Below are positions 5,198 through 23,597 of a DNA stretch of 29,000 nt, in pieces. The stretch is taken from positions 1 through 29,000 of the forward strand of contig JABLTI010000026.1 in NCBI GenBank assembly GCA_013166835.1, given 5' to 3'. Positions within the stretch are counted from its first letter, which is position 1; every line of letters begins with the position of its first letter. The notes below the pieces were generated by a model. The model worked only from the letters and a program-made list of their open reading frames with translations. It had not been told where the DNA came from and did not search any database. The position numbers and the translations under genes are program-made. This DNA comes from Promethearchaeati archaeon. GTDB taxonomy: Archaea > Asgardarchaeota > Heimdallarchaeia > JABLTI01.

Positions 5198-6721
5198 TTA
5201 ATTTAAGCTGCCAACTTCTTTTTCGACTTCTTCAAGGATCTCGCAAGATTTAACAAGTGCTTTCATTGTGTTATGATCATCGAATAAAGGTCGGTCTTCA
5301 TCAAGGAATTCAACATGTCTTCGAATAACTTCTTTTGCTTTAGTAACTCCATCACCGAACTTGAATTCTCTGAAATCTAGAGCTTGAGCAGCAGCCATAA
5401 ATTCGATGCCTAAAACACCATAGGCATTATCCATGATTTGATTATTCTTCAATGCAGTGTTCATACCCATTGAGACAAAATCCTCTTGATCAGCAGCAGC
5501 TGGAATAGACATAATGCTTGCAGGCATGGATAAGATTCGCATTTCTACGATTTGCATGTCAGCAGCATATTGACTTAACATAAGACCTGACATTAAACCT
5601 GCACCCTTTGTTAGGAAAGGTGGTAAGCCAATACTTAGAGCTGGATGATTTAATCTGTTCATACGTCTTTCAGACATGACACAAACCATAGTAATAGCAG
5701 CACCAGCCATATCCATTGGTAAACAAACTGGAGTTCCTTGGAAATTAGCACCAGTTAACTGTAACTTTTCTTTGGTGAAGAAGACAGGATTATCACCTAC
5801 ACCATTAAGCTCAATTTCTACTTGTGATCGAGCCCAAGCAAGTGCATCATGAGCAGCACCAATAACTTGAGGAGCAGAACGCATTGAGTAAGCATCTTGA
5901 ACTTTTACTTTCAATTTGCCTTCAAACAAGTCTCCACCTTTGAAAAGCTTAGAAAGTGCTGTTGAGCTTCTAATTGCTCCAGCGAAACCTCTAATCTTGT
6001 GCAGTTTAGGAGTATAAGGTTTCATGTTGCCCATTAAAGCTTCAATCGACATTGCGCAAGCAATTTCAGCTTGCTTCAGGAAATTTAAAGCATCATAAAG
6101 CCAAAGAGCACTCATACCTGTAAGGAAATTGGAACCATTAATTGCTGCTAAACCATCCCTAGGTTGCAAGCCAGGAATTTTAATGCCTGCTTTATCCATG
6201 GCTTCTTTACCAGGTATTAATTTACCTTTATAATAGGCTCGTCCTTCACCCAAAAGTAGTAAAGCAATTTGTGACATAGAGCACAAGTCTCCAGAAGCAC
6301 CAACAGAACCTTTTTCCATTACTTCCGGAGTAACTCCTTTATTTAGCATCTCAACTAATGTTTCAGCAATAATCACTCTATTACCAGAATAACCTTGTGT
6401 AAGAACATTAAGGCGACCTAACATAGCAGCACGAACATGTTCAATAGGGGCTGCATCGCCAATGCCTGCAGCATGATTGTAAATTAAGTATTTCTGGAAT
6501 AGCAAGGTTTCCTCTTCATTGAAGAATGTTTCCGAGAATTCTCCAATCCCTGTAGTTATTCCATACATTACCTCTCTTGCTTTTATTTTCTCTTCAAGCA
6601 TATCTCTGCATGCTTGCATCTTTTTTATTGCATCTGGATGCAATTCCACTTTCTCGTTATGACGTGCGACTTTAACAACATCTTCGATTGTTAGTCCTTC
6701 ACCAGTAATCACATATGTCAT
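5198..6721 (-). CDS. hutH: Histidine/aromatic amino acid ammonia-lyase (MIO enzyme), copy 1
   Basis: YGITTGIG, GSVGASGDL (MIO Ala-Ser-Gly), VQDAYSMR, DNP, GANFQG, QEDFVSMG. ATG 6721 with upstream AGAGG preferred to TTG 6754. NH and FQG/QEDF variants leave the substrate less certain. Confidence 0.85.
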   Translation of the reverse strand: MTYVITGEGLTIEDVVKVARHNEKVELHPDAIKKMQACRDMLEEKIKAREVMYGITTGIGEFSETFFNEEETLLFQKYLIYNHAAGIGDAAPIEHVRAAMLGRLNVLTQGYSGNRVIIAETLVEMLNKGVTPEVMEKGSVGASGDLCSMSQIALLLLGEGRAYYKGKLIPGKEAMDKAGIKIPGLQPRDGLAAINGSNFLTGMSALWLYDALNFLKQAEIACAMSIEALMGNMKPYTPKLHKIRGFAGAIRSSTALSKLFKGGDLFEGKLKVKVQDAYSMRSAPQVIGAAHDALAWARSQVEIELNGVGDNPVFFTKEKLQLTGANFQGTPVCLPMDMAGAAITMVCVMSERRMNRLNHPALSIGLPPFLTKGAGLMSGLMLSQYAADMQIVEMRILSMPASIMSIPAAADQEDFVSMGMNTALKNNQIMDNAYGVLGIEFMAAAQALDFREFKFGDGVTKAKEVIRRHVEFLDEDRPLFDDHNTMKALVKSCEILEEVEKEVGSLN

Positions 6722-6896
6722 ATTTCTGCCTCTTAAATGAATAACTAGCTTCAATAATATATCAGTTTAAAATTTTTGTCTAATATTACGATAAATGAAG
6801 TAGTTTGCAGTAAGTAAATAGTACTTCTTGTTGGTATTATTTTAATTAAATTAGACTAGGAAATATACTTAATAGTCAATTTTAGAAAACTCGATT

Positions 6897-10846: not shown

Positions 10847-12574
10847 ATCTATTACAATACTACCTGCTCTTACTAATTCAACTATTTTGTTTATGTCTGG
10901 ATAGATTATTCTATCATGAACTAATTTTGGAACGACTGATCTGATTGTTTTGTAGGCATTGTATGTTTGTTTTCCTAGTGCTTTTTCGTGAGGAATCTTT
11001 TGTATTTCGCACCTCAAATCTATTGCTTGCACTGCTAACATCATTTCGATGGCAAGAATGTATTGAAGGTTTTCAAGGATTTTCGCTGTTTTTCTTGCTG
11101 CAATTGGGCTCATACTTACATGATCTTCAGCTTCATCAGATGTTGGAATTGAATCTACAGATGCCGGGGCTGATAATACTTTGTTTTCTGATACTAACGC
11201 TGCTGCGGTGTATTGAGGCATCATAAAACCACTATTCAATCCTAATTCACTGCGTGGTATCAAAAAGAGACTTAATCCGTCGTTTCTTTTATCATCGATT
11301 AGTTTTGCGCATCGTCTCTCTGAAATATTGCCTACTTCAGCCATAGCGATTGATAAGTAATCCATAACCATAGCAATCGGTTCACCATGGAAATTACCAC
11401 CAGAGTAAATATCAAATTCTAACGGATCTTTTTTGGTGATAAAAATTAATGGATTATCAGTCGCGGCATTAATTTCTCGAGAAATCGTATCACAGCAATG
11501 TGCCAATGTTTCTCTTACTGGGCCCAATACTTGTGGAGTGCACCTTATAGAGTAGTCATCTTGTATTTTTGGCCACTGCTTTTCAAAATCAGCCTTTGAT
11601 CCACCACAATTTGGACAAATCCAATCATCTGGTAAATTGATAAATTCAGTATTAGGAGGTACATTTTGTGACGCATCACCCATTTTCCTATCATAGTAAT
11701 ACCCACAATTCTCTACTTCACATGTGAATAAACTTTCATGCTTTTTCACAAAGACGCTGCCTTTTGTATAGGACCGAAGGTTTTTAGCTACCTCTATTTG
11801 ACCAGGGTGAAATCGTGCTTGATGGATTCTATCGTCAAATTGTTGACTAGCTGCTTTGAGAGCTTCTAATGATAAGGCTGCAGCAATTTCTGCATTCTTG
11901 ATTAAATTACTTGCTTCGTGTAAAACTATACAGGCTATTCCTGCTGAATATTGAGCGCCATTATTTAGAGCTAAGCCTTCTTTGTATGATAATTTTGTAA
12001 TTGGAATCCCGGCTTTTTGCATGCCTTCTTTAGCATTGTATATTTTTCCCTCAAATTTCAGATTGTTTTCTCCTTCACCAATCATCGCCAAAACCATATG
12101 TGATAGTTGTGCTAAATCTCCACTTGCTCCAACAGATCCTTTTATTGGAATTATTGGTAAGACATTTTTGTTTATCATTTGAACTAGATTTTCTAAAGTT
12201 TTTAATTGGCAGCCAGAATATCCTTGTGCAAGTGCAGTCACCCTTAGAACCATCATAGCTTTGACGAAATCATCTCGAGCAGGTTCCCCAACCCCGACAC
12301 AGTGACTTCTTATCAAATTAGTTTGTAATTTAGTAGCATCTTTTTCAGGAATAACAATATCCCGCAATGCGCCAAAACCAGTAGTAATACCATAGATTTT
12401 TTCCCCTGATTCTACAGCTTTTTCAATAGCTTTTCGAGCTAAAATCACTTTTTCTTTCACATTTTCAGATAGCTTCAACTTGTAATCATTTTTCACAATG
12501 TGAACAACATCTTCCAATGAGAGTCCTTCATTATCAAGAATTACTGTTTCTGGCAAGAGCTTAATCCACTCCAA
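10835..12574 (-). CDS. hutH: Histidine ammonia-lyase, copy 2, with inserted rubredoxin domain
   Basis: YGITTGFG, NLIRSH, GSVGASGDL, IQDDYSIRCTPQ, GGNFHGEP, EDHVSM. In-frame rubredoxin at 11579..11728. Start could be TTG 12556. Confidence 0.93.
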   Translation of the reverse strand: MEWIKLLPETVILDNEGLSLEDVVHIVKNDYKLKLSENVKEKVILARKAIEKAVESGEKIYGITTGFGALRDIVIPEKDATKLQTNLIRSHCVGVGEPARDDFVKAMMVLRVTALAQGYSGCQLKTLENLVQMINKNVLPIIPIKGSVGASGDLAQLSHMVLAMIGEGENNLKFEGKIYNAKEGMQKAGIPITKLSYKEGLALNNGAQYSAGIACIVLHEASNLIKNAEIAAALSLEALKAASQQFDDRIHQARFHPGQIEVAKNLRSYTKGSVFVKKHESLFTCEVENCGYYYDRKMGDASQNVPPNTEFINLPDDWICPNCGGSKADFEKQWPKIQDDYSIRCTPQVLGPVRETLAHCCDTISREINAATDNPLIFITKKDPLEFDIYSGGNFHGEPIAMVMDYLSIAMAEVGNISERRCAKLIDDKRNDGLSLFLIPRSELGLNSGFMMPQYTAAALVSENKVLSAPASVDSIPTSDEAEDHVSMSPIAARKTAKILENLQYILAIEMMLAVQAIDLRCEIQKIPHEKALGKQTYNAYKTIRSVVPKLVHDRIIYPDINKIVELVRAGSIVIDLDS

Positions 12575-12725: not shown

Positions 12726-13043
12726 TTATTGTTTTTGTTTTAATCGTTTTCTTTTAATGAATTCCTTTCCTTTGAAATGTCGATAACATTTCAAATAGGG
12801 TGAAAAATTAGGAGGTATTACTTCTTTGATTTCCATGTCTTTTTCTGATATGATTTTTATTGTACTCGCTCTCTTATGTTTTTCTTCTATCTCCTCTTGA
12901 TATACCTCTTCAGCAAAAATTTCCTCTATAGATTCTTCTTCACTTGTGGTTGAACTCACTTCGTATGCAAATTCCAAAGGTTCTTCAGTATCTTTGGTAT
13001 CCGCTTTATTTTCACTTGTGGTCTCAACTTTCTTGTTTTTCAT
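12726..13043 (-). CDS. Small acidic, low-complexity hypothetical protein; last gene of the SMC/Ubl operon
   Basis: ATGA start/stop overlap with the E2 gene. Glu-rich N-terminal half, TIKIISE motif, basic C-terminus. Confidence 0.7.
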   Translation of the reverse strand: MKNKKVETTSENKADTKDTEEPLEFAYEVSSTTSEEESIEEIFAEEVYQEEIEEKHKRASTIKIISEKDMEIKEVIPPNFSPYLKCYRHFKGKEFIKRKRLKQKQ

Positions 13044-13795
13044 ATTATCCTCACTCCTCCTTTCTTTTCTTCCTCTTTCTCCTCTCGAGGTATGATCTTA
13101 ATAGTTGTTCCTTTATCCTCTGTGACTACTTTCTCTTCACCTTCAGAACCAATAATTCTAATACCACCACTTTCTTTCAAAGATACTTTCTCATGATTAG
13201 CATCCCATTTTGTTAGCATTAGTTTATGGATATTATCAGCGTCTTTCTCAAACCACCTCATTGCAATGGTATTCGTTCCTGAGTCTTCTTTCGGAAAGAG
13301 CTTTGGGGGGCGTATTCTTCTTGGATCCATGAGAATGTGATAAAGAATATCAATGAGTATTCTATCTACTTCCCCATTCACAGTTATACAAGCTTCACCG
13401 TTGCTACCTGTAGATATTCTTGGATGCCATAACCTTGTTATAGCCCTCATTTTGATATGGGAGAGATTTGCTGGATATTCTCGAGGAAGAAAAATTGAGA
13501 ATTTATGATCGTTACTCATATTTAATTGCTTTCTGTTTGCTGATTGTCCTACTAAACCGGGGGTTCTCCTCATTGTGAAGAGGATATCTCGATAAGCACT
13601 ATCTTTGTATTTTCCCTTTATTTCTACAGTGTAATCTTCCTGAACCCATTTGTCCCCTGTGCGTTTTTGTGGTACCCACTTCCACCCTTTCTTTTTGAAG
13701 AAATCTTCCATTGATTCATAGAAAACTGAAATTGATTCAGCTATTCTAGCATTTACTACTGTAGCTGGAAAATATGTTCTCGCTATTTTTTTCAC
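13040..13795 (-). CDS. Ubiquitin-conjugating enzyme E2 (UBC fold) with C-terminal tail
   Basis: FSIFLPREYPA...ITRLWHPRIS...GEAC matches the UBC signature (F-x-YP, HP(N)I, G-x-x-C active Cys). Adjacent to the Ubl and E1 genes. Confidence 0.82.
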   Translation of the reverse strand: MKKIARTYFPATVVNARIAESISVFYESMEDFFKKKGWKWVPQKRTGDKWVQEDYTVEIKGKYKDSAYRDILFTMRRTPGLVGQSANRKQLNMSNDHKFSIFLPREYPANLSHIKMRAITRLWHPRISTGSNGEACITVNGEVDRILIDILYHILMDPRRIRPPKLFPKEDSGTNTIAMRWFEKDADNIHKLMLTKWDANHEKVSLKESGGIRIIGSEGEEKVVTEDKGTTIKIIPREEKEEEKKGGVRII

Positions 13796-13832
13796 CTTCG
13801 TTTTACATTTAGTCTTAACTGAAAGAAGAGAT

Positions 13833-13869
13833 GTTGAAATTACTATCCGAATTGATAGTGAATTCCAAC
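13833..13869 (-). promoter_or_regulatory. Intra-operon stem-loop downstream of the Ubl gene
   Basis: GTTGGAATT-C-ACTATC-aattcg-GATAGT-AATTTCAAC: about 15-bp stem with one bulge and one G-U pair. Confidence 0.5.
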
Positions 13870-13888
13870 CCGTTCAATCTAACAGTTT

Positions 13889-14200
13889 TTATCCTACTTG
13901 AGCACAAGCGTCTAACTTGAAACGTTCATTTGATTCCAATGCTGGTTCAAGCGAACCAAAGGTTGCAGCAGGTGGCAATGCTGTGTTACCAGTCATTTTT
14001 CTCATCATGATAAAACTAACATTGGGTTGCCCGACCTTTTCCTTAGCCCACTTATTGATATCGACACCTTCATCGATGCATCTTTGTACCAAAGTTTTTA
14101 CAACTTCATCTATTGTTGATTCTTCCTCAACAGCTACACGAAATTCTTTTTGTCTTGGCTCAACATCTATAATGACTTCACGCCATATTTCTTCGCTCAT
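13889..14200 (-). CDS. Ubiquitin-like (beta-grasp) modifier with C-terminal Val-Gly
   Basis: Beta-beta-alpha start (EVIIDV..KEFRVAVEEESTIDEVVKTL). FIMMRK..GNTALPPAATFGSL..LESNERFKL parallels ubiquitin [27 protein letters not shown]. Ends AQVG-stop and lies between E1 and E2. ATG 14200 or GTG 14212. Confidence 0.75.
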   Translation of the reverse strand: MSEEIWREVIIDVEPRQKEFRVAVEEESTIDEVVKTLVQRCIDEGVDINKWAKEKVGQPNVSFIMMRKMTGNTALPPAATFGSLEPALESNERFKLDACAQVG

Positions 14201-14279
14201 TGTTTTGTTCACACCTAAGTTATATTGCTGTTTGATGCTTTCTCAGCATCTTTAGTACTCCATCAGGCTTCTGATGGGG

Positions 14280-15221
14280 TTACCGATCTGAGATTTTATT
14301 TGCCTTTCTTCTTGCCCTACACGTTACATCTACACATTTGGGATTTGGCATAATGTTCGCGAATATCATTTCATGATCACGTAAATCATACCTAATCATT
14401 TTACCGAAATTAGGTTCTTGACCTTTGGTAACATCTGAGTATCCGCCTTTTCCGTCACTACTTACCAATACTTTTGTTGCTTCCACAGACATAATTCCTC
14501 CAACGATTGAAGTTAAAGTGCTAATCATTGGAAATTTTGGCAGTGTTTCCACAAAGAATTCATCACAACTCAGAACCACTTGATGATTCATAATTGCTTG
14601 ATAGTAATCTTCACTCCATAAACACACAGCACAAGCAGTAATTCCCGGATGATAGATTTGGGCTTCTATGAAGGACTTACCCATTGCACCATTAATCATA
14701 GGGACTGTTTTTTCTTGCATTAAATTACCATAATTTAACATGTATCTTGCATAATCATTATCTAATGCCATTATGATTAAATCAACTTGATACACTTCTT
14801 GTGGTGCGTCCTCTATTCGCACTTCATATGGGGTTACTTTTGTGTTAGGAGCTATTTCTGGTAATCTTTCAGCTACTGCATTTACTTTTGAAATGTTCTT
14901 ATGGTCACCTGGTCTGAAGAAAATGCATCTGTTTATGTTAGATTTATTTACAATATCAAAATCAACGAGCTTGATATGTCCTACACCTAGCATTCCCAGG
15001 TTTTTACAAATTTCATTTCCTACAGCTCCGGCTCCTACGCATAAGATAGTACTATTCTTTATTTTTTCTAGATTCGCTTTGCCAAAGTATCTTCTTGTCC
15101 TATCTTCAATATCCTCTTCAAAGAAACCAACACTTAGTAACTCTTTTTCTTTTATAGAACCATGGGATGAATTATCCGATTGGTGAGTACTTTTTTTCTG
15201 TGTTGATTCTCCATCTGGCAA
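14280..15221 (-). CDS. E1-like activating enzyme (ThiF/MoeB/E1 family)
   Basis: VGAGAVG nucleotide-binding motif, DFDIVNKSNINR, ALDN..AR, Zn ligands CAVC and CVDVTC, candidate catalytic Cys in VLSCDE. Confidence 0.93.
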   Translation of the reverse strand: MPDGESTQKKSTHQSDNSSHGSIKEKELLSVGFFEEDIEDRTRRYFGKANLEKIKNSTILCVGAGAVGNEICKNLGMLGVGHIKLVDFDIVNKSNINRCIFFRPGDHKNISKVNAVAERLPEIAPNTKVTPYEVRIEDAPQEVYQVDLIIMALDNDYARYMLNYGNLMQEKTVPMINGAMGKSFIEAQIYHPGITACAVCLWSEDYYQAIMNHQVVLSCDEFFVETLPKFPMISTLTSIVGGIMSVEATKVLVSSDGKGGYSDVTKGQEPNFGKMIRYDLRDHEMIFANIMPNPKCVDVTCRARRKANKISDR

Positions 15222-15238
15222 ATTATCACTTCAGTTAT

Positions 15239-15901
15239 TCATTTTACAGTATATTCGATCCAGTCTACCTCTTTGAGATCTTTTTCGCCATTCTCATTAA
15301 CAACAATATAGGATTTGTAATAATTAGATCTAGGATCAATTAAGACAAACACATTATGTTCAGCATCGTAAGGAAAGTTTAGAAATGTGTTATAATCAGT
15401 CGATGAGAAATGTGGATTGGATCCAAACGGATGAGAATGAAAAATACCGACTATTTTTGGTCGTTCTTCACTTCCACCATACTTTTCTTCTATAATAGTT
15501 GTATATTGTCTAACGCCTTCTGGGGTAAATTCCGCATAAGCATGACTTGAATATGCTTTTCCTGTGACCCAGTCAACAACTTTAACGTACTTCTTTCCTT
15601 TGTATAGATATTTGTACCCAAGTAATATCCCAATTGCTTCATTTGGGTCTGATTTCTTACATAATAGAAATGTTTCGTAAACGACTCTTTGTAAAATATA
15701 AACAGGATAAATGTCTTCTTCTTCTGGATTCCCTATTAATTCTTCTGTTTTTGATTTCTCAGTAATCGTTTTCTCTTGTATCAATTCTTCTTTTCTTTTA
15801 CTTCTTTTTGGAGTTCCTTCAGGCTCTCCTAATAATTTACCAAGATGATTCTTCGGGGTTTCTTTTTGGGAGTCCTTCTTATCTTTCTTCATGTTATCCA
15901 C
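15239..15901 (-). CDS. JAB1/MPN+ (JAMM) metallo-isopeptidase
   Basis: EAIGILLG ... VGIFHSHP....FSSTD is an intact E-HxH-S-D JAMM motif; VLIDP follows. Confidence 0.92.
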   Translation of the reverse strand: MDNMKKDKKDSQKETPKNHLGKLLGEPEGTPKRSKRKEELIQEKTITEKSKTEELIGNPEEEDIYPVYILQRVVYETFLLCKKSDPNEAIGILLGYKYLYKGKKYVKVVDWVTGKAYSSHAYAEFTPEGVRQYTTIIEEKYGGSEERPKIVGIFHSHPFGSNPHFSSTDYNTFLNFPYDAEHNVFVLIDPRSNYYKSYIVVNENGEKDLKEVDWIEYTVK

Positions 15902-15917
15902 TCATTCTTCTGTTCAC

Positions 15918-16403
15918 TTACCCAATTTTTTCCCATGTGATGAACTTACCTCGCCTTCTCTTTGTCATTACGAAACCAAAGGAAGACCAGATTTCTTCTT
16001 GGATTTTGGGAGGTTCGAGACTTAGCTCATCGTCTTTATCCTCTTCTTCTGCTTTCTTCTCCACAGCAGCGTAAAAAGGCATGAAGCCCATTTGTTCATC
16101 TTCAAAGAACAATGTCTCTAACAAACCACCAGTTATTCCTTCTGACTTGTTGGATTCAACAAATAGCATGACTTCTTCAATTGGAATTGGTCCAGGACTT
16201 AATTGATGTCTATCAATTCCAAAGATGAAGGATGGACAAGCTCCCGCCATTTTCAAATCGAATTCCTGAATGCATTTTGGGCATATGAATGTTCTACAAA
16301 TTCGACACATTCGCCAACCAACATCAATAGCTTCCCTTAAGGTAGCACGACCATTATGTCCTGCACAACGAATTGATACTGTTGAAGTTGTTATTACAGC
16401 CAT
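15918..16403 (-). CDS. RING-like zinc-finger protein (candidate E3, Nse1-RING-like)
   Basis: CAGH...GWRMCRICRTFICPKC..F.....CP...H gives eight potential ligands in RING-like spacing. Sits between the KITE and JAMM genes. Confidence 0.6.
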   Translation of the reverse strand: MAVITTSTVSIRCAGHNGRATLREAIDVGWRMCRICRTFICPKCIQEFDLKMAGACPSFIFGIDRHQLSPGPIPIEEVMLFVESNKSEGITGGLLETLFFEDEQMGFMPFYAAVEKKAEEEDKDDELSLEPPKIQEEIWSSFGFVMTKRRRGKFITWEKIG

Positions 16404-16427
16404 TTTCTGCTACCTTCTTTTTCTTTT

Positions 16428-17054
16428 TTAGAGCAACATTCCCTCAGTTCTATCGGCGATTTCCTTCCTTCTTTCTGGTGCAATCTCTATCTTCGTTCTA
16501 GCACCGTATCGTATCTTGTTCCCACCTCTCCTAATATAACCTGCAGAAACTAAGGTTCGTAAAATTCTTGTTAAGGAGTATTCTGAATAATAACCTCGTT
16601 TCACTAAACGATCGAAAAGGATGGTTGAAGTTATAGGAATTTCCTCTCGTCTTCGATGATCGGTAGTTTTCTCTATTAGATAAATTATTGTCCCAAGAAC
16701 AGCTTGTTCATCCAATGATAATTCGTTTGGAACAACATAGATAGATCGCAAGCAATACCAAACTTCATTATCAACTACATATGAAATTAATTCTAATCCA
16801 AGTCGCTTCACATTTCTTCCAAAATCTTCTAATAAAGTCTCAAGCTCGAGAAGTGTTAAACCTGTTTTATTTCTTAAATGCCTTTTAGATACCCCAAAAG
16901 CCAATGAGTCATTTTCCATACGTCGTCTGGAAGTTAAAGCAAGGAATAATTGAGGGTCAATCTCTCCGAAATCTTCCTCTAATTTTTCTCTTACGTTATT
17001 AATGGATCTTTTTTCAACTTGTTCTTCATCACTATTTGATTGATTTTCAATCAT
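16428..17054 (-). CDS. KITE-family tandem winged-helix protein (Nse1/Nse3-MAGE/ScpB-like)
   Basis: LGLEL...WYCL and E..VLGTII.LI...L..LVSAGYI....IRYGART.IE resemble Nse1/MAGE WH-A and WH-B (compare WGPRA..E). Size and position downstream of SMC and kleisin fit. Confidence 0.65.
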   Translation of the reverse strand: MIENQSNSDEEQVEKRSINNVREKLEEDFGEIDPQLFLALTSRRRMENDSLAFGVSKRHLRNKTGLTLLELETLLEDFGRNVKRLGLELISYVVDNEVWYCLRSIYVVPNELSLDEQAVLGTIIYLIEKTTDHRRREEIPITSTILFDRLVKRGYYSEYSLTRILRTLVSAGYIRRGGNKIRYGARTKIEIAPERRKEIADRTEGMLL

Positions 17055-17075
17055 TTTTCAACCTTCTATTAATCA

Positions 17076-17939
17076 TTATTTTCTTGTTTTTCTTGGAGTA
17101 ATTACAATTGATTGATTTACAAGATCAAGCTCATCTATCCTCTCAGAAGCAGTTTGCACAGGAATAATTTCAATTGAATCTTTTCCTGTTCGCAAAAGCA
17201 TAATTTGCTTTTCTCTTACTAAGAGTGATATCAAATCAGCGGAAATACTGTCAATTTTGCTTTCAAGTTCAGAAATTTTGAATTGCTTTCCACCAAACTT
17301 TTTCAAGAATTCTTTTTTCAAAGATTCCTTTTGCTCTTTCGTCAATTTGCGTAATGGTAGCGATTCCATGATCGCTATGCCTTTCCCCTCTAGAATTTCA
17401 TCTTCAACGAGGAGTTCTTTCTCGTCTCCTTCAATAATCTGTACTCCACCAACATCATGTAGATTAAACATATCCATATCCAGCGTATTATCTCCTGGCA
17501 TAAACATAATGGCTTTAGTACGTATCTTCACTTCCCATGCAATCATACGTAAACGATCTCTTTCGGTAGTTCCCTCTAAAGCTATTTTCGTATCTCTAGT
17601 TCTTTGCATCTTGGTGAGAGATTGGTATACTCGAGCATCTAATTGTTTGTGTCTATTACTGGCAATGTGTAGGTAAGCATCTGATACTTCTATTCGATCC
17701 TCTTCACTTTCAGCTATTTGTGGAACAGTTCCTTTTTCTAACAAAGTCTTGTATTTCTTTGCGACACTCCACAATAATTTCTCAATCCCATCACTAGTTT
17801 GTTTTTTCTTGGGATCATTTTTCTGCTTATCCGGATTATCATTTGGTTTTAATTTGTTAGAAGATTTCTCACTGTCTTCTTCATTTGTTGATTCCGAAGT
17901 GGATATTTCTATTTCAATATCATTATTGTCTTCTAACAT
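17076..17939 (-). CDS. Putative kleisin (Nse4/ScpA-like) subunit
   Basis: Overlaps the SMC stop by 17 nt. Helical N-terminal region, acidic linker, and a C-terminal winged-helix-like segment ISLLVREKQIML reminiscent of Nse4 SFLVRDG. The call relies heavily on context. Confidence 0.5.
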   Translation of the reverse strand: MLEDNNDIEIEISTSESTNEEDSEKSSNKLKPNDNPDKQKNDPKKKQTSDGIEKLLWSVAKKYKTLLEKGTVPQIAESEEDRIEVSDAYLHIASNRHKQLDARVYQSLTKMQRTRDTKIALEGTTERDRLRMIAWEVKIRTKAIMFMPGDNTLDMDMFNLHDVGGVQIIEGDEKELLVEDEILEGKGIAIMESLPLRKLTKEQKESLKKEFLKKFGGKQFKISELESKIDSISADLISLLVREKQIMLLRTGKDSIEIIPVQTASERIDELDLVNQSIVITPRKTRK

Positions 17940-20922
17940 GTTCAGCTTTTACCACCTTCATCTCAGAAACAACCATGTGATGGATATTATCTGATACATC
18001 AACGTCTAAAGCATCAGGACAAAGCAGAATAAATTGAGGAACAAAGCGAGAATTTTCTCCAGCTAGTTTTTGTGTTCTTACTGCTATACTGAATGCTAAT
18101 GCTTTATTTTTCTCGTCTAATCTCTGTGTGAATTCATCAATAGCATGGATTGGTGAATCCGTTAGAGTATGCATTGCTAAAATGAGCCCTTCAATTGCTA
18201 GGACTTTCTCTCCTCCGCTTAGTTCTCGAAAATCACGATAGGCCTTCCCTTTAGTAATCGCTTCTATGTATAATCCTGCATCTTCTGGTTTATTGATGTT
18301 AGTTACTTTCAATCTTACTTTCTCAAATATTCCTCCTAATAGGAGTTTCATCGAACGTGTGATATTTGTAATAACTTCTTGTAGCTCCCCATTCCAAAAT
18401 GCTAATCTAGCTTCTAAATCTGCACGTAAATTAGTAATATGCTCCTCTCTTTCAACCATATAAACCTTCAAAGATTCAACTTTCACTTTTTGAGCATCTA
18501 TTTTATCTTCATCTACATTACTGATTCCGATTGAATCTAAATGCCCTTCAATTCGGTTTAACTCATCCCTTATTTCAGTATAATTTCTAATTTCTTCTGG
18601 TCGTTCCCCTTTCTGCTTTGCTTGTTCCTCTCTTTCATTTTTTTCTTGTAAATGAGTTTCATATTCAGAATCAAAGTTTAACTCGAGTGTGAGAAGCCGT
18701 GTAGATTTCTCAACTAAACTATGAGATTCTATTCGAAGCAATTCAATTGTTTCATTTATATCCTCAATATTTCTTTTTACTTCATTCTTTTTTATGAAAT
18801 AAGTAGCAAAATCATCATCAGCTTCATCGAGTTCAAGTTTCAATCCATTCTGATGTATTTTGTATTCCTGTGTTTTCGCTTCGATTGTAGCGATGATTTC
18901 ATTTATGGTTTCAATTTTACCCAAGATTTTTTCATCAGGCATACCTAATGCTTGAATTTCTTGATGCAGCTTTGTTATTTCTTTTAGGGTTTTTATTTCA
19001 TCGATTTTTAAATCGCGTGTTTCTTTTTCTAATCGTGCGATTGCAACTCGTGTTTTCCTTTCATTAATTATGGTCGTGAATTGCTTTTCTTCTGATGCTT
19101 TTATCTTCCAACCAAAAGGATTCTTCATTGGTGCAGGTGGTCTTCCGAATCCTCCATGTGATAAATAGTAGCTTTTTCCTGATTTTGTTAGGATATTAAT
19201 ACGGGAATCCCTAGCGATATTTGTTAAAGTATTTGGATCATATTTATCCTCAGCAACACCAGCTTTCACTACTCTTTTCAGAAAGCCTAATGCATAAGGA
19301 TTACCAGATAGGAGATTACTGGCAATATCATTAACTTCTTTGTATGGAGGTTTTTTGAGCATTTCAGATGCTTTTTTGGCATCTTCAGCAGTTACTTTGT
19401 ATACAGAAATTGGGGGTTTCCATCGAGGCCATGTCTCATCATACAATCTTTTTGCAAATCTATAACCCTCATCTGTCTTAGCTAAAAAGGCATAAAGATT
19501 TCGACCGATGAGATTTTTAACAGCATTTCTCCAAGTTTCTTTTCCCTCTTTAATATCGATTAAGGAAATTATTGGTCCGATGATTTCTTTGTCCATAGAT
19601 TGTTTTCTAATTTTATGATAGAAAATTTTCGCAGAATTTGTTAGGTCTTCTTCAAACTTTGTTAAGCGTTGTCCGGAATAGGTTTCTTCGTCTGAAGAAA
19701 ATGAATCAAAATGTGGTTCAACAATTATTCTCCTTCTGTGAATGAGGAGTTCTTTATCTGCATTGGAGTATTTTTCTTGAATCATGGATAACTTTTTTGT
19801 TTTTATTATCAGAGCTTCTTGTCTATCTTGGAGTTTTCTATCCTTTTCACTTAGATTCTTAGTGGCAATGATTTTTTCCATTTCATTTTTTTGTTCGTTA
19901 TATCGTTCAATCTCTTTTCCAAAATTCTCGATATTTTCTTGATCGTTTTGGATTTGAGTTTCTAATGTGATCAACTTTCTATTCTTTATTCGTTCTTGTT
20001 CTTCTACTAATTCTAATTCTTCCTTCAAAACTTGTAATCTATTATTTGTTAAATCAATTTCAGATTTCTTTTTACTTATCGCTTGTTCATTCTCACTTTT
20101 TTGCTTTACAATTGTTAATCGCTGCTTATTTACCCCATCTAATTGTTTCTCTAATCGAGTCACAGATGACCAAGCAAGTTCTGTTTCCAATTTTGTTTTC
20201 ATTATCATTAGTTTCTTCTTTTGATTTAGAATCTTCATTGCATCGTTCCAAAGGTTTAGCAATTTACTTTCAGTTTCATACTTTCTTTTTAATGGTTCAA
20301 TCTCTTGAATGCTTGCTTTTAGTGTCTCTTGAGAGGTTATTACCTCTTCTCGATATTGTTTTAGTCCTGTTACTTCTAAGAGAACTTCCAATTTTCTCTT
20401 GGGACTTTTTGAAGCAAAATCATCTACAGTTCCTTCCCCTGTAAATGCTAATTTATTATCACCGCGAACTCCAATTGATTCAAAGACTCTTCTAACATCT
20501 CGTCTTGTAACCAATCTTCCCCGAATAATTCTTCTTGAGTTATTAATACTATATGTAACGGAACTATCATCCCGGGATATTTTAGCTGTGACCTTAAATG
20601 TATCAAAATCTATCACTGAATTCAAATCTTTATCCAAAGTATGAATTGCTCTTCGACCATTTATGATTGGGTTAGCTATTTCTAATGTAATTGTAGAAAA
20701 ATCATCATTTTTCCCAACTAAACTACCAACACCCTTTGCTTTTGCTCTAGCAGGAATATGTCCGATGCATAAGGTTAATCCATCTAGCACTTGTGTTTTT
20801 CCAGAACCATTTGCTCCTGTAATCAATGAAATAGCTTCTTTAGCTAAATCCACTACTGTGAATTCGTGAAGCATTAGGTTTTCCATGGTTATTTTTTGGA
20901 ATAGTTTAGCTTTTCCATTCAT
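17923..20922 (-). CDS. smc: SMC-family ATPase, SMC5/6-like
   Basis: Walker A GANGSGKT, long coiled coils, central hinge IIGPIISLI......W..AV..LIG..L.AF, signature LSGGEK, Walker B/D-loop SPIHAIDEFTQRLD. 999 aa, with no Rad50 CxxC hook. Confidence 0.9.
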   Translation of the reverse strand: MNGKAKLFQKITMENLMLHEFTVVDLAKEAISLITGANGSGKTQVLDGLTLCIGHIPARAKAKGVGSLVGKNDDFSTITLEIANPIINGRRAIHTLDKDLNSVIDFDTFKVTAKISRDDSSVTYSINNSRRIIRGRLVTRRDVRRVFESIGVRGDNKLAFTGEGTVDDFASKSPKRKLEVLLEVTGLKQYREEVITSQETLKASIQEIEPLKRKYETESKLLNLWNDAMKILNQKKKLMIMKTKLETELAWSSVTRLEKQLDGVNKQRLTIVKQKSENEQAISKKKSEIDLTNNRLQVLKEELELVEEQERIKNRKLITLETQIQNDQENIENFGKEIERYNEQKNEMEKIIATKNLSEKDRKLQDRQEALIIKTKKLSMIQEKYSNADKELLIHRRRIIVEPHFDSFSSDEETYSGQRLTKFEEDLTNSAKIFYHKIRKQSMDKEIIGPIISLIDIKEGKETWRNAVKNLIGRNLYAFLAKTDEGYRFAKRLYDETWPRWKPPISVYKVTAEDAKKASEMLKKPPYKEVNDIASNLLSGNPYALGFLKRVVKAGVAEDKYDPNTLTNIARDSRINILTKSGKSYYLSHGGFGRPPAPMKNPFGWKIKASEEKQFTTIINERKTRVAIARLEKETRDLKIDEIKTLKEITKLHQEIQALGMPDEKILGKIETINEIIATIEAKTQEYKIHQNGLKLELDEADDDFATYFIKKNEVKRNIEDINETIELLRIESHSLVEKSTRLLTLELNFDSEYETHLQEKNEREEQAKQKGERPEEIRNYTEIRDELNRIEGHLDSIGISNVDEDKIDAQKVKVESLKVYMVEREEHITNLRADLEARLAFWNGELQEVITNITRSMKLLLGGIFEKVRLKVTNINKPEDAGLYIEAITKGKAYRDFRELSGGEKVLAIEGLILAMHTLTDSPIHAIDEFTQRLDEKNKALAFSIAVRTQKLAGENSRFVPQFILLCPDALDVDVSDNIHHMVVSEMKVVKAEHVRRQ

Positions 20923-21072
20923 AAATTCCTAACTCCGCTGCTTTACTTTAGACGAAGTGCAAAAGATCTGGTTGGGAGATATTCAAATAGAACAATCTAT
21001 CAGCTTTCTCCGATGCTTCCCTCTTTTCATTGACTCTTTACTTCGGTCTAACTATATCCTCTTGTTTATCTG

Positions 21073-21084
21073 TTTAAATAAAAA
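21073..21084 (-). promoter_or_regulatory. Candidate TATA box for the SMC/Ubl operon
   Basis: TTTTTATTTAAA on the minus strand about 150 nt upstream of the SMC ATG and about 22 nt upstream of a structured leader. Confidence 0.35.
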
Positions 21085-21239
21085 GTTTGAAAGGAGTTAA
21101 GCGAAAGTATTTTTCGACTCACCTGCTACACTAAATGTTATTAGTGTACTACATCATTCTGTATATATAACTAATTAAATGTGGTAATATCAAAAGTAAT
21201 AAGCTCTTGCTTAACTATGAGAAAAAAAGATAAAAGAAA

Positions 21240-21270
21240 AATGGAAGGAAATTATTTTCCAGCTTCCATT
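21240..21270 (-). terminator. Hairpin plus T-tract after the subtilase gene
   Basis: AATGGAAG...CTTCCATT stem enclosing GAAA/TTTC, followed on the minus strand by TTTCTTTTATCTTTTTTT. Confidence 0.55.
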
Positions 21271-21287
21271 CTATGAACATTTTTGAA

Positions 21288-23597
21288 TTATTTTCTCTTT
21301 CTAGCTGTTAAAATCACACTGGTTAATCCAATTGTGCTTAAAACTATCCATGCAGCAAAAGGAATTCCAAATGGGAAGGTAAAGCCATTAGTTGGTGTAC
21401 CTGTTTTTGTTGCTTCTGCTGAAAGAGTAAAACTACCAGATCCAGAGACTCGTTTAACCACAATATAGACTGTCTTGTTGTTTGCAGGTGTGTAAAGGAT
21501 ATTTTCGGGCACTCCCGCTGTTGCTGTAGTACTACTCGCCAAAATTGCTGAAGCTGAGGTTACATCTACTGAGGGATCATACAAGTAAAGATCATAGTCA
21601 GCAGTTCCATCCATTTCAATACCAGCTGTAAACTCAATTAATTCAACTAATTCTACTTTTCGAGCCCAGCTTTGCATGCTAGTCGGTGAACTACTAAGTG
21701 ATTCAGTTACATTAGTTCCAGCGGTATATGTTGAGAGGAATGCTTCAATCGCTGCATCACCGTGTACTTTGCCAAAACCTTCAACTAAATCTCTTGCGCC
21801 TCTATTCAAGGTAGGAGGATTACTATAAACATCCACTACTTCACCATACCGAACTTCTGTTGCGGTTCCGCAGAGAATATTCTTTATGTAAAGCACGTTT
21901 GCTTCTGTATGAGTCCAATCTGTTCCCATGGCTTCTATCATTAATGCTGCTAAGCCAGCTACATGAGGAGTAGCCATACTGGTTCCCTGAAATGCTATGT
22001 AATCATCTGTATTTAGTTCAGTTTCCCAATAAGTGGATGGGGATCCTGATGAGAAATCAATAACATCTTTATCATTTGTGTCAGCAGCAACTATTGGATG
22101 AGTATTTTCATCTGCCCCTATGGGATCTTTGTATGCTCCACCAGGAGCCAAAATATCGGGTTTACCTGTTCCGGTGTCACCATTTGAGGAATAAATTGCT
22201 ACTTTATCAACATCATCAATGGCTCCAACGGTTATTGCTTTACTTGCTGTACCAGGGGAATAAATAAAATCACCATCTGTATGACCATTACCAGCAGCTG
22301 CCACACATACATATCCTAAAGAAACAAGATTGTTTATTGCAGTATCTACTGCTGAAATTTCCGAATCAAAACCTAAGGACATACTTACTACTGCTATATT
22401 ATAAGTATCACCATTAGCATTTATCCAATCTAAAGCATCAGTAAATTCTGTTTGAGAGCCAATTCCTGAATCATCTAAAGCTTTCAAAGCAACGATTTCA
22501 CAACCAGGTGCAACACCTCGATATTTATTGTTTCCATCAGATGTTGAAGAAGCAGGACGAGTAATTTTGTATTGAACTTTTGCTCTCGCAATTTCTGAGG
22601 AGGGTTCTCCTCCTTCATATGGTCCAATTATGTATTGATATTTTCCTGGGGAAAGAGTTCCAGATGTAAAAGTCAATGGTGTTACACCAGTACCATAATC
22701 TTGAGTTATTATATCCTCAAAACCAGCAGCTAATGGATTTGAATCAAATGCAAGAAACAAAGTATCTGTTGGACTATCTGGGGTATCTGTTTCATCCCAC
22801 CAAATTTCGAATGATACAGTTCCTGAAGTTTCCACTTCTACATGGCTTATTAAGCCATATAGTTCATTTAAGTGAGGTAAGCCAAGTGTTGCTGATATTT
22901 CCACATTTGCTGCAGTTCCAGCACCTGCACCTGATCCAGCTGCGATACTTGAAACATGAGTCCCATGGCCACTCCAATCAGTTGCAGTTCCATATTCATC
23001 ACTTCCAACAAAAGCATCATGTCCAATGAAATCTTCCCAATGTGAGATTCTTCCAGTGAAATCTGGATGGGTGTCATCAATTCCTGTATCTATAATTGCA
23101 ATAGCGTCACTTACATCTCCCTCAAAACCTAAGGTATCCCAAACATAGGGTCGAACATTTATTTGGGGAACGCTTGTACTCAGCATTGTTTTACATTTAT
23201 AGTTCTCTGTCACAAAATTGACTCCCGGGATCGCTGCTAAAGCACCTATTTGTGTTCCTTTAATTCTAACTGCAGCACCATGAATTACAGACCAAGAACT
23301 AACTATGATACCATCTAGTGATTCAATGCTGTTTCTAATCATGTCATTTAGAGGTGTATCAAAAGTGACGACTGTTGTATAGTATTCACTCTCAAATCCA
23401 TTGCTTACTATGTTCTCTAAATGGTCATGAACTTTATTTTTATTCAAATCCAAACTTGTATCTTGTTTCACAAGTGGATTGAAAGTGCTTACTTCTATTG
23501 GGACATCGGGTAGTTGGGCAGATGCATATGACCCAAATGCCAATGGCAATAAGAAGAAGCTAAAAAAGATAAGAGCATGCATTTTTTTGTTAATCAT
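21288..23597 (-). CDS. S8 subtilisin-like serine protease, secreted and C-terminally anchored
   Basis: Signal peptide, I9-like prodomain, IIDTGID (Asp), HGTHVSS (His), AAGN, GTSMATPHV (Ser), PPC-like DYDLYLY domain, C-terminal TM plus RKRK. Confidence 0.95.
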   Translation of the reverse strand: MINKKMHALIFFSFFLLPLAFGSYASAQLPDVPIEVSTFNPLVKQDTSLDLNKNKVHDHLENIVSNGFESEYYTTVVTFDTPLNDMIRNSIESLDGIIVSSWSVIHGAAVRIKGTQIGALAAIPGVNFVTENYKCKTMLSTSVPQINVRPYVWDTLGFEGDVSDAIAIIDTGIDDTHPDFTGRISHWEDFIGHDAFVGSDEYGTATDWSGHGTHVSSIAAGSGAGAGTAANVEISATLGLPHLNELYGLISHVEVETSGTVSFEIWWDETDTPDSPTDTLFLAFDSNPLAAGFEDIITQDYGTGVTPLTFTSGTLSPGKYQYIIGPYEGGEPSSEIARAKVQYKITRPASSTSDGNNKYRGVAPGCEIVALKALDDSGIGSQTEFTDALDWINANGDTYNIAVVSMSLGFDSEISAVDTAINNLVSLGYVCVAAAGNGHTDGDFIYSPGTASKAITVGAIDDVDKVAIYSSNGDTGTGKPDILAPGGAYKDPIGADENTHPIVAADTNDKDVIDFSSGSPSTYWETELNTDDYIAFQGTSMATPHVAGLAALMIEAMGTDWTHTEANVLYIKNILCGTATEVRYGEVVDVYSNPPTLNRGARDLVEGFGKVHGDAAIEAFLSTYTAGTNVTESLSSSPTSMQSWARKVELVELIEFTAGIEMDGTADYDLYLYDPSVDVTSASAILASSTTATAGVPENILYTPANNKTVYIVVKRVSGSGSFTLSAEATKTGTPTNGFTFPFGIPFAAWIVLSTIGLTSVILTARKRK

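Follow-up and report, generated by a model that had tools for sequence, protein, structure and literature searches.

Do the nine genes at positions 12726–20922 encode one system, in which an SMC complex works together with ubiquitin-like (Ubl) protein conjugation, or two systems that share nothing but their place on the chromosome? The cluster, like the two genes at 618–2721 discussed below, lies on the minus strand of the window (the whole 29,000-nt stretch of DNA analyzed here). The sequence-only reading had described it as nine co-oriented genes with gaps under about 100 nt, joining an SMC5/6-like complex to a complete Ubl cascade. The open reading frames confirm this layout with exactly the same coordinates: all nine are co-oriented, and their junctions, in gene order, are a 17-nt overlap, gaps of 21, 24, 16, 17, 67, and 93 nt (the widest), and a 4-nt overlap. 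Upstream of the SMC gene is an AT-rich intergenic region of 365 nt (20923–21287), in which the S8 protease gene is followed first by a T-rich stretch and then by AT-rich segments; this region is the likely start of the transcription unit.

Gene content of the cluster

The first gene (17923–20922) encodes an SMC ATPase of 999 aa, with Pfam matches to AAA_23 and SMC_N above the cut-off and with Walker A (GANGSGKT), signature (LSGGE), and Walker B (IHAIDEF) motifs in its translation. When its profile (A9) is compared with the PDB, the best five matches are all SMC6 (131–135 bits), aligned end to end in one stretch (14–961 of the query to 82–1083), followed by SMC4 (105 bits), prokaryotic Smc (90 bits), SMC5 (87 bits), and Rad50 heads (at most 38.5 bits). 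By these profiles the protein is SMC5/6-like and closest to SMC6, in agreement with the original proposal. The same genome also encodes a canonical SMC of 1214 aa and Rad50, the latter in a HerA–Mre11 operon.

The next two genes may encode a kleisin and a kite protein, judging by their positions. The kleisin-like protein (287 aa, 17076–17939) has no match in Pfam, NCBIfam, the PDB profile search or the ESM Atlas; its gene overlaps the SMC stop codon by the 17 nt mentioned above, and is kept between the SMC gene and the third gene in every examined locus spanning that position. The C-terminal half of the kite-like protein (208 aa, 16428–17054), the conserved third core gene, matches a winged-helix, SarA-type domain in the PDB profile search (8e-5), with a sub-threshold MarR match in Pfam and with MAGE and DUF4194 (0.80 each) in the ESM Atlas as leads only; these four sources gave no family or fold match confirming either identity. 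Among the initial gene assignments, SMC, RING-like, JAMM, E1, Ubl, and E2 stand, while kleisin and kite are putative calls from gene position.

Five further genes form the Ubl cassette. The JAB/JAMM metallopeptidase (220 aa, 15239–15901; Prok-JAB, 34.5 bits against a Pfam cut-off of 25) carries the motif HSHPFGSNPHFSSTD and matches PADLOC JAB models down to 1.3e-7. The E1-like ThiF-family adenylyltransferase (313 aa, 14280–15221; Pfam ThiF, 138 bits, 3.7e-40) has partial NCBIfam matches to ThiF, MoeB, UbaA, and Ube1. The Ubl (107 aa, 13889–14212) is modeled by AF2 as a beta-grasp fold (pLDDT 89.6, pTM 0.80); Foldseek yields seven matches at E ≤ 1e-3, the best six being SUMO1 (TM 0.71–0.78), followed in the ranking by Hub1, ubiquitin, and the Caldiarchaeum ubiquitin (6fno_D, E 1.2e-3). 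Its C-terminus reads QVG and then stop; VG is kept without exception at this end in 18 of 18 homologs, with an added 1–4 aa in some of them.

The 251-aa product of the gene at 13040–13795 appears to be an E2 on account of its catalytic motif, as its UQ_con score of 19.2 bits lies below the Pfam cut-off of 27. Among 21 homologs the HPR…C (Cys136), YPANL, and RPP motifs do not vary, and of the 60 PDB chains listed for its profile (A11), 59 are E2s whose alignment covers the catalytic stretch, at E values of 0.011–0.8. Its tail bears three [IV][KR]II motifs, the last one lying at the C-terminus. The gene of the small acidic protein g9 (105 aa, 12726–13043), which overlaps the E2 stop codon by 4 nt, is next after the E2 gene in both the colinear and the divergent gene orders described below; g9 contains a conserved [ST]IKIIS-E-[KR]-D…PPN[FY]SP block and has no family match in Pfam, NCBIfam or PADLOC. 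Elsewhere the same genome encodes canonical ubiquitin plus a pair of canonical UQ_con E2s, so that the SMC-linked cascade is an extra, specialized one.

The RING-like protein g4 and its paralog

The gene between the kite-like and JAMM genes (g4, 15918–16403) encodes a RING/U-box-like zinc protein of 161 aa. Residues 1–89 form an N-terminal binuclear cross-brace zinc finger of the RING/U-box type, followed by an acidic disordered linker and, at the C-terminus, by a conserved three-stranded sheet with the motif EExWxxxGxVxVKRxRGKFITWE. The zinc ligands are C13, C/H16, C33, C36, C41, C44, C56, and H66, the last pair being C-x9-H or C-x4-C; in two members (P0058 and P0059) ligand pairs 1 and 3 are missing together, as expected for a cross-brace. 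The AF2 model has a mean pLDDT of 81.7, with block means of 86–97 over residues 1–80, and is confident over residues 1–89.

Nse2/Mms21 is the SP-RING SUMO ligase of eukaryotic SMC5/6. RING, U-box, and SP-RING E3 domains dominate the Foldseek and VIA lists for g4, Nse2 included (2yu4, Z 4.8; 7qcd_C, Z 4.2), and RING, U-box, SP-RING or ZZ domains make up most of the best 50 VIA matches listed (Z 3.8–5.5), though all of these matches have Z ≤ 5.5 and Foldseek E ≥ 0.2, values common for unrelated small domains. Nse1 is not among the 50 matches listed in either VIA list.

The sequence-only reading had treated the nine genes as an SMC half and a Ubl half; the linkage of the two holds, but g4 falls in the SMC module. 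The order SMC–kleisin–kite–g4, with short overlaps, occurs in nine out of nine distant loci, including those from lineages without the Ubl cassette. In a search of genome contigs the complete four-gene core was found in 25 of 35 g4 loci, and at a minimum the kite gene adjoins g4 in all 35. g4 is the fourth core gene in all lineages and near-universal within families (28 out of 31 genomes in f2, 16 out of 19 in f12, nine out of 11 in f1). As these four genes constitute a conserved core, g4 belongs to the SMC half, not to the Ubl cassette, and its product may well be a physical member of the SMC complex and act as an E3.

Complex prediction for E2 (residues 1–205) and g4 (residues 1–90) gives a score of 0.56 against 0.01 for the best control, with runs agreeing in at least 80% of contacts and a partner pLDDT of 86; in the benchmark 58 of 80 solved complexes reached the mark, as did two of 110 mismatched pairs, and scores of 0.60 or lower came from seven of those 80 complexes and from both passing mismatches. 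Because RING–E2 complexes have been solved many times, the pass may reflect likeness only, and the prediction weakly suggests an E2–g4 pairing.

A g4 zinc-finger paralog, ZnP (118 aa, 2365–2721), is encoded in the same window about 10 kb from the cluster. It lacks the C-terminal sheet and has a tail with KILP and KILD motifs; its gene overlaps by 35 nt that of a transglutaminase-like (papain-fold) protein of 593 aa (618–2399; Transglut_core, 1.9e-21). In other genomes (G098, G118) and metagenome loci (L097, L102, L103, L104) ZnP lies inside the cassette (Ubl–E2–g9–ZnP–TGase), and in G010 and L091 downstream of the cluster. A transglutaminase-like gene comes after ZnP or E2 in G098, G118, G092, G081, and G082 and in the metagenome loci L097, L102, L103, L104, and L112. 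The cascade is thus not complete within 12726–20922, as had been claimed, since two genes that are cassette members elsewhere reside at 618–2721.

Linkage of the two modules across Asgard archaea

In a sample of 400 Asgard genomes from about 33 families, g4 is found in 62 genomes, the E2 of the cluster in 32, and both in 29. The E2 is confined to four families (f1, f7, f8, f12), all of which also have g4, itself present in eight. In 20 of the 29 genomes with both, g4 and E2 share a contig at a distance of 2.1–5.2 kb; seven of these belong to f1, with the colinear order, and 13 to f12, with the divergent one. Among the other nine, contig ends were inspected in six: they interrupt the cluster in three f1 genomes and in G151, and in G081 and G082 g4 lies beside a fragmentary JAB gene, no more than about 260 bp from where the contig stops. 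For G136 and G137 the assessment used coordinates alone. The two parts are truly separated in one genome (G124/G092): g4, JAB, and E1 stay with the SMC operon, and Ubl and E2 are elsewhere. There are therefore at least two gene orders and one split form.

The JAMM gene is directly 3′ of g4 in f1, f7, f8, and f29, the last represented by Sifarchaeum (kite–g4–JAB–E1), as well as in L108 and L113, metagenome loci of a third, very divergent lineage with the order g4–JAB–E1–Ubl–E2. Among the metagenome loci found via E2, 11 out of 31 contain SMC-module genes, L108 and L113 being two of the 11. As the arrangement recurs across families and in differing gene orders, it is not due to chance, and the earlier expectation that the halves would stay together in relatives is mostly borne out.

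The two modules might nevertheless be neighbors that have no function in common, with the Ubl cascade as a general or unrelated modifier, engaged for example in proteolysis targeting or sulfur transfer. In f2, the largest Heimdall and the largest g4-bearing family, the core is retained, with g4 in 28 of 31 genomes, but the E2 was found in none of the 31, including the complete genome G016, which was searched with the profile, and no ubiquitin genes occur within 5–10 kb of the f2 loci; therefore, g4 and the SMC core work without the cassette. Conversely, some long contigs carry Ubl–E2(–TGase) but no SMC genes (L045, contig C13 of G092, and L112, where 9.7 kb of upstream sequence is clean). Within the genus of the window, synteny extends equally to the flanking genes for an S8 protease and an ammonia-lyase, so conservation at that level carries no weight. 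Against all this, the E2 occurs only in g4-bearing families, four out of four, although these number just eight among the approximately 33 sampled; the adjacency survives rearrangement from the colinear to the divergent order; the split genome keeps JAB and E1 in the SMC operon even with Ubl and E2 elsewhere; and the presence of E2 and RING-like proteins favors conjugation over sulfur transfer. Taken together, we consider unrelated neighbors unlikely, and the pattern of linkage makes functional coupling of the modules likely.

Comparison with known systems and a possible mechanism

Several features recall eukaryotic SMC5/6: the SMC closest to SMC6, an associated RING-type domain with Nse2 among its fold matches, and a Ubl that has SUMO1 as its nearest structural match; the order SMC, kleisin-like, kite-like is that of kite-type SMC complexes. 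In contrast to eukaryotic SMC5/6, there is one SMC gene and no SMC5/SMC6 pair, and genes for the E1, E2, Ubl, and peptidase accompany those of the complex, whereas in eukaryotes the general cellular machinery supplies these functions. The gene order kite–RING mirrors the domain order of Nse1, which comprises a kite and a variant RING (PMC8750328). Unlike the Nse1 RING, g4 stands apart from the kite as a protein of its own; its C-terminal domain is different, and it has C-x9-H or C-x4-C as its last ligand pair.

TACK and Asgard archaea have been described as having, in addition to the canonical SMC, a second SMC operon that encodes three subunits together (van Hooff et al., bioRxiv 10.1101/2024.01.07.573240). 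The cluster resembles such an operon, with g4 and the adjacent Ubl cascade in addition; main-text parts of that study do not mention these, and say that archaeal kites lack the Nse1 RING, which they call a eukaryotic innovation. The ubiquitin operons of Caldiarchaeum and Asgard archaea combine the same five functional gene classes, namely ubiquitin, E1-like, E2-like, small RING, and Rpn11-like JAMM (PMC5654768, PMC6043591, PMC3082918). In the present cluster, by contrast, the Ubl ends in VG and not GG; the Ubl, E2, and RING-like proteins are far more divergent, as none has an above-threshold Pfam match; the cassette has g9 and the transglutaminase-like protein in addition; and it is linked to an SMC operon in a host with canonical ubiquitin and E2s elsewhere. 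Literature searches returned no description of a pairing of SMC5/6 and Ubl operons.

Defense systems are usually patchy in distribution, and bacterial Ubl-conjugation modules serve in defense (CBASS Cap2/Cap3, 6A-MBL, Bil-type), the Ubl cascade acting as effector in Bil- or CBASS-associated systems. By analogy with these and with Wadjet (JetABCD) or Lamassu, in which an SMC-family ATPase shares an operon with kleisin- and kite-type partners, the SMC could sense plasmid or viral DNA and the Ubl cascade could be the effector. E1, E2, and JAB enzymes are likewise encoded together here, JAB and E1 have partial NCBIfam 6A-MBL cap2_3 matches, PADLOC gives partial matches to E1–E2 and JAB models and a weak one of the SMC to LmuB (3.5e-12, N-terminal half only), and eukaryotic SMC5/6 restricts episomal DNA (reviewed in PMC10586767). 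Yet Pfam and PADLOC find no nuclease, cyclase or other known effector in the operon, such as the JetD Toprim nuclease or an LmuA-type protein; JetC models match at E 0.02 or worse; E1 and E2 are separate proteins, unlike in the bacterial modules; the SMC profile is far nearer to SMC6 than to Rad50-type proteins; and the module is near-universal within families, in chromosomal surroundings that are conserved, non-mobile, and uniform in composition. A role in defense thus seems improbable. Still less probable is that the cascade regulates the SMC complex itself (its loading, turnover or ATPase cycle) and is not steered by the complex toward other substrates, for which the same linkage and the ubiquitination of the kleisin Nse4 by fission yeast Nse1 (PMC8750328) can be cited. 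This is a non-exclusive variant of the model below, and the evidence is silent on the direction of action.

Given the observed gene content, folds, and conserved linkage, we find it fairly probable that the cluster represents two cooperating modules of a Heimdallarchaeial chromosome-maintenance system. The first would be an archaeal SMC5/6-related complex of one SMC, presumably a homodimer, with the kleisin-like and kite-like proteins and g4, anchored by its C-terminal sheet. The second would be a Ubl conjugation system that is divergent and distinct from the canonical ubiquitin of the organism. In it E1 would adenylate the Ubl at its terminal Gly, E2 would carry it on Cys136, and ZnP and g9 would assist; its processing and removal would fall to the JAMM peptidase, possibly together with the transglutaminase-like protein. 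On the SMC complex g4 may recruit the charged E2, so that the Ubl would be attached to SMC subunits or nearby DNA-bound proteins at sites of complex loading. The motif [KR]-V-[KR]-I-[IL]-acidic, which recurs in E2, g9, and ZnP, may act like a SUMO-interaction motif, holding the Ubl or Ubl-modified targets. Since the cassette has its own RING paralog in the divergent order, ZnP rather than g4 could be the E3. With the same pairing present in several Asgard families, SMC5/6 and protein tagging may have been connected before eukaryotes arose.

The gene cluster and its SMC core

The sequence-only reading placed nine co-oriented genes at 12726–20922, in the order SMC, kleisin-like g2, kite-like g3, RING-like g4, JAMM/JAB, E1, Ubl, E2, and g9; all nine ORFs were found at exactly these coordinates, on the minus strand, and their close spacing was confirmed as well, the longest overlap being 17 nt and the widest gap 93 nt. 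The first gene of the cluster is preceded by 365 nt of AT-rich intergenic DNA, and base composition is even over the cluster and both flanks. The gene calls proved largely right: SMC, JAMM, E1, and Ubl are supported, while kleisin and kite follow from position and conservation, plus one winged-helix match.

A hairpin with a 7-bp stem (CCATCAG-AAGC-CTGATGG, about 14253–14270, minus strand) lies just after the E1 stop codon, inside the 67-nt gap before the Ubl gene; no T-run follows it, and it could serve in processing or stability or have no role at all. Two aromatic amino acid ammonia-lyase genes (10835–12574 and 5198–6754, both on the minus strand) adjoin the cluster throughout the genus, and the product of the former has a rubredoxin-type zinc domain inserted mid-protein (Pfam Rubredoxin, 1.8e-16, residues 283–330). 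The region is also flanked by genes for a clostripain-family (C11) peptidase (8894–10846, plus strand) and for a large S8 subtilase that ends in a transmembrane tail (21288–23597, minus strand), both of which appear unrelated to the cluster.

The SMC protein (999 aa) passed Pfam AAA_23 and SMC_N, and its translation carries the Walker A, signature, and Walker B motifs. The single sequence aligns end to end with SMC6 chains. When a profile of 11 orthologs was compared with the PDB, the best five matches were SMC6 (131–135 bits, one stretch covering profile positions 14–961), followed at lower scores by SMC4 (105 bits), prokaryotic Smc (90), SMC5 (87), and Rad50 heads (at most 38.5), which bears out the proposal that this SMC is nearer to SMC5/6 than to other SMC classes. 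Strict SMC5/6 membership fails on the heterodimer: no second SMC partner for an SMC5/SMC6-type pair was found, the operon having one SMC gene and the other long SMC_N frames over the cut-off in the genome being a canonical SMC (1214 aa) and the Rad50 of a HerA–Mre11–Rad50 operon. By analogy with other prokaryotic SMCs, the protein probably acts as a homodimer. Since the canonical SMC and Rad50 are also present in the genome, the SMC of the cluster is the second paralog, related to SMC5/6, such as bioRxiv 10.1101/2024.01.07.573240 describes in TACK and Asgard archaea.

Position and conservation mark g2 as a putative kleisin (Nse4-like); it had no Pfam, NCBIfam, or PADLOC match, no meaningful PDB profile match, and no usable ESM Atlas match. 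For g3, a putative kite, position and conservation are joined by one winged-helix match in the C-terminal half (profile vs. PDB, 8e-5); this profile comparison yielded a generic winged helix alone, without Nse1, Nse3, or ScpB, and the Atlas leads, MAGE (0.80) and DUF4194 (0.80), are both under the trust level of the tool. In Ca. Heimdallarchaeum aukensis (G016), a 214-aa ORF (L013:18636–19280) matches only the SMC N-terminal head, at 35% identity; between this ORF and the full SMC gene downstream of it lies a 650-aa gene, whose family precedes SMC in many loci of family f2 (core without the Ubl cassette) and gives faint CARDB and DUF11 matches.

The RING-like fourth gene

A RING-like gene had been noted in the operon, and it is present, but the unit to which it belongs is a different one. 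Other families of the class have the SMC-g2-g3-g4 block, with short overlaps, in nine loci (SMC 29–33% identical over the aligned region), and no lookalikes of JAB, E1, Ubl, E2, or g9 were found beside the block there. The RING-like g4 belongs to the SMC half.

The g4 family comprises 59 proteins, mostly of 150–170 aa, at E ≤ 1e-3 in a profile search of 1.84 billion representatives. Eight zinc ligands are conserved (C-x2-[CH]-x16-C-x2-C-x4-C-x2-C-x11-C-(x9-H or x4-C)), as is a C-terminal motif, EExWxxxGxVxVKRxRGKFITWE. Two family members have jointly lost ligand pairs 1 and 3 and kept pairs 2 and 4, the joint loss being expected from a cross-brace topology. In the g4 model (mean pLDDT 81.7; 86–97 across residues 1–80), a disordered acidic linker runs from the zinc domain at the N-terminus to a three-stranded sheet. 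Foldseek and two VIA-align runs list hardly any fold matches besides RING, U-box, SP-RING, and ZZ domains, and among them is the SP-RING of Nse2, both alone and inside the Smc5/6 holocomplex (Z 4.8, 4.2, 3.9); all these scores are modest (Foldseek E ≥ 0.2, Z 3.8–5.5), and such values can arise by chance in small domains. Nse1 is not among the matches listed (best 50) in either VIA comparison, which does not amount to an exclusion. By sequence, the best PDB profile match was the RNF4 RING (E 0.05), and for all 37 g4 family members the comparison with Pfam yielded nothing beyond scattered matches to IBR, B-box, FYVE, and RING, each of them sub-threshold. Taken as a model-based assignment, a RING/U-box-like fold of g4 is supported at modest scores. 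The zinc-ligand spacing resembles what we take to be the detailed consensus spacing of the C4HC3 class. The variant RING of Nse1 is assigned to this class in PMC8750328.

For E2 (residues 1–205) and g4 (residues 1–90), complex prediction gave a score of 0.56 (best control, 0.01), with runs agreeing in at least 80% of contacts and a partner pLDDT of 86. Of 80 solved complexes, 58 attain the mark used, as do two of 110 mismatched pairs, scores of 0.60 or under being those of seven of these solved complexes and of both passing mismatches. Moreover, RING–E2 complexes are common among solved structures, and hence the pass may show likeness only; the predicted E2–g4 interaction is weakly supported.

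Seven proteins of 243–395 aa (P0068, P0071, P0072, P0075, P0076, P0078, P0084) have a C-terminal part matching the g4 zinc finger, preceded by a region in which long helices and a winged-helix-like segment can be discerned by eye. As far as the sequences suggest, this architecture is reminiscent of Nse2, with its helical arm-binding region and RING.

The ubiquitin-like cascade

The identities of E1 (ThiF, 138 bits vs. a cut-off of 28.1) and JAMM (Prok-JAB over the cut-off, an H-x-H...S-x2-D-like motif in the translation) are secure. The modifier had no family match by sequence. Its AlphaFold model, built from 18 homologs (pLDDT 89.6, pTM 0.80), yielded seven Foldseek matches at E ≤ 1e-3 (best E 3.2e-4), of which the top six are SUMO1, and its fold matches include SUMO1, Hub1, ubiquitin, and Caldiarchaeum ubiquitin; the E-values are too close together to favour a SUMO-like over a Ub-like identity. 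The VG end is invariant (18 out of 18 homologs), with the stop codon directly after it in nine and, in five, a 1–3 residue extension or, in the metagenome locus L112, a 13-residue tail. Short extensions of this kind occur in family f12. The original Ubl assignment is thereby supported, the protein being a beta-grasp modifier with a C-terminal Gly. In three metagenome loci (L110:3403–3858, L114:273–701, L115:171–626), the Ubl frame runs beyond VG into a sequence resembling the E2 N-terminal helix, and the E2 ORF overlaps in another frame; these run-on frames may represent Ubl–E2 fusions, frameshifts, or assembly errors.

The E2 is a putative one: UQ_con scores 19.2 bits, under the cut-off of 27, but all 21 sequences compared share HPR, Cys136, YP, and RPP, and 59 of the 60 PDB chains listed for the E2 profile are E2s (E 0.011–0.8, none individually significant). 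Nothing meaningful was found for g9 in Pfam, NCBIfam, or PADLOC (two NCBIfam matches, E about 0.07–0.1). A short motif, in which a basic residue precedes V/I-[KR]-I-[IL] and acidic residues often follow, recurs in the E2 tail, in g9, and in ZnP, a paralog of the g4 zinc finger; E2 has three copies of it in both gene arrangements. Like SUMO-interaction motifs, these copies may, we propose, bind Ubl.

On other contigs, the genome encodes canonical ubiquitin (PF00240, 50 bits) along with two canonical UQ_con E2s (together, G000:C194:775–969, C197:31661–32023, and C110:18209–18460), and thus the SMC-linked cascade is an additional, divergent system. That it is complete within 12726–20922, as the sequence-only reading had it, requires correction. 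In the divergent arrangement, seen elsewhere, the cassette includes a 128-aa ZnP and a transglutaminase-like protein; in the window, the genes for the counterparts of both (ZnP, 2365–2721; transglutaminase-like, 618–2399) lie outside these limits, at 618–2721, on the same strand as the cluster, separated from g9 by the two ammonia-lyase genes, histidyl-tRNA synthetase, and others.

Loci of f2 keep a transglutaminase-like gene of about 535 aa, 7–9 kb from g4 (e.g., L013:2839–4446), with a C-terminal tail resembling that of the 593-aa protein of the window; the gene may be what is left of synteny shared by the region or of a cassette that was lost. Beside a Ubl–E2 pair in a genome of family f7, a 165-aa protein (L045:3408–3905, plus strand) combines a zinc finger of the DNA-nick-sensing PARP type (zf-PARP, 1.7e-14) with a faint match to SMC_Nse1 (E 0.008).

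Linkage across Asgard archaea and its meaning

Within the window's genus, linkage carries no information, since the S8 protease and ammonia-lyase genes on either side are conserved along with the cluster. Among the g4 loci in named genomes, Ub genes adjoin g4 in 10 out of 35 and in none of the other 25; nine of the ten come from the window's own lineage, the tenth being Ca. Sifarchaeum subterraneum (kite-g4-JAB-E1, 41–56% identity). Three relatives of the latter extend the comparison. G092 has colinear SMC-g2-g3-g4-JAB-E1, with Ubl-E2-transglutaminase on another long contig; in G098, Ubl-E2-g9-ZnP-transglutaminase is divergent from SMC-g2-g3-g4, with JAB-E1 beyond; G118 has the order of G098 interrupted at contig ends, and its candidacy as a module without the cassette was dropped, as a second contig, terminating at the break, carries the cassette. 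In f7, from the window's class, g4 lies about 260 bp or less from a contig end, and the sequence left over holds a JAB fragment (colinear in G081, convergent in G082); Ubl-E2-x-transglutaminase is on other contigs.

Metagenome loci found through E2, a sample biased toward the cassette by construction, contain SMC-module genes in 11 cases out of 31 (five colinear, four divergent, and two, L108 and L113, with g4-JAB-E1-Ubl-E2 in a very divergent lineage); three (L110, L112, L114) have Ubl-E2 without SMC genes, 13 are under 3.2 kb and uninformative, and four more are cut at the relevant end.

The survey of 400 Asgard genomes is unbiased for g4 and E2. It found g4 in 62 genomes (families f1, f2, f5, f6, f7, f8, f12, and f29) and the cluster E2 in 32 (f1, f7, f8, and f12 only). 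Both genes occur in 29 genomes, on one contig in 20 (about 2 kb apart in seven f1 genomes, 4.9–5.2 kb apart in 13 f12 genomes) and on different contigs in nine, six of which (three f1, G151, G081, G082) had their contig ends inspected. We infer a break in G136 and G137, where g4 is <2.9 kb from the contig start; in G124, the same genome as G092, the cassette is truly split. In f2, g4 is present in 28 out of 31 genomes and E2 in 0 out of 31, and neither gene occurs in f20, the largest family surveyed (135 genomes). For 46 distinct g4 sequences, a quick maximum-likelihood tree sets a tight unlinked clade (25 rows) against long-branched, mostly linked lineages and needs at least three changes of linkage state; several of its branches are long, and its deep order is unreliable.

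An accident restricted to the genus was rejected as the explanation of the linkage, on the strength of the rearranged, linked loci beyond the genus and of the 400-genome survey. The claim that the two halves are linked stands across several Asgard families despite rearrangement, but not for G124/G092, where they are split, nor for f2. Several families conserve the linkage of an SMC5/6-like core having a RING-like subunit with a private Ubl cascade, but in others it is dispensable. Copies labelled Bathyarchaeia, Thorarchaeota, and Zixibacteria (L047, L074, P0022) are near-identical to, or group closely with, Heimdall-type cluster genes, and these labels are likely binning or labelling errors.

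Archaeal SMC5/6-related operons have been published as three-gene units (bioRxiv 10.1101/2024.01.07.573240), and archaeal Ub-E1-E2-RING-JAMM operons have been published as well. The suggestion that the combination is undescribed agrees with full-text literature searches and the available text of 10.1101/2024.01.07.573240, in which we found no account of an SMC operon whose fourth gene is RING-like or which a Ubl cascade adjoins. Wadjet and Lamassu differ in having a dedicated nuclease/effector (JetD, LmuA) in the operon, whereas none was found among the nine proteins here by Pfam and PADLOC.

Functional coupling of the SMC core and the Ubl cascade is the best reading of these data, and we consider it reasonably probable. 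SMC5/6, the least understood eukaryotic SMC complex, is alone in having subunits that act as ubiquitin and SUMO ligases, which raises the question why. The cluster would offer a compact archaeal version that could be rebuilt from about ten small genes; the rebuilt system would ask whether SMC DNA loading and ATP turnover gate conjugation, and which substrates are modified, with the lineages that have the core without the cassette (f2) as natural controls.

More tentatively, the tie of SMC5/6 to ubiquitin/SUMO-type ligases might predate eukaryotes: on this view, the Asgard core already had a RING-like gene right after kite and, in several families, would have been served by its own SUMO-like E1–E2–protease set, so that a kite–RING fusion could have led to the Nse1 architecture, and the dedicated cascade could be a forerunner of SMC5/6-directed SUMO/ubiquitin ligation. 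If true, this would contradict the published view of the Nse1 RING as a eukaryotic innovation, expressed in the one paper found on archaeal SMC5/6 (bioRxiv 10.1101/2024.01.07.573240). If g4 is related to the RING of Nse1 or Nse2, the ligase arm of SMC5/6 was inherited, not invented, which bears on eukaryogenesis.
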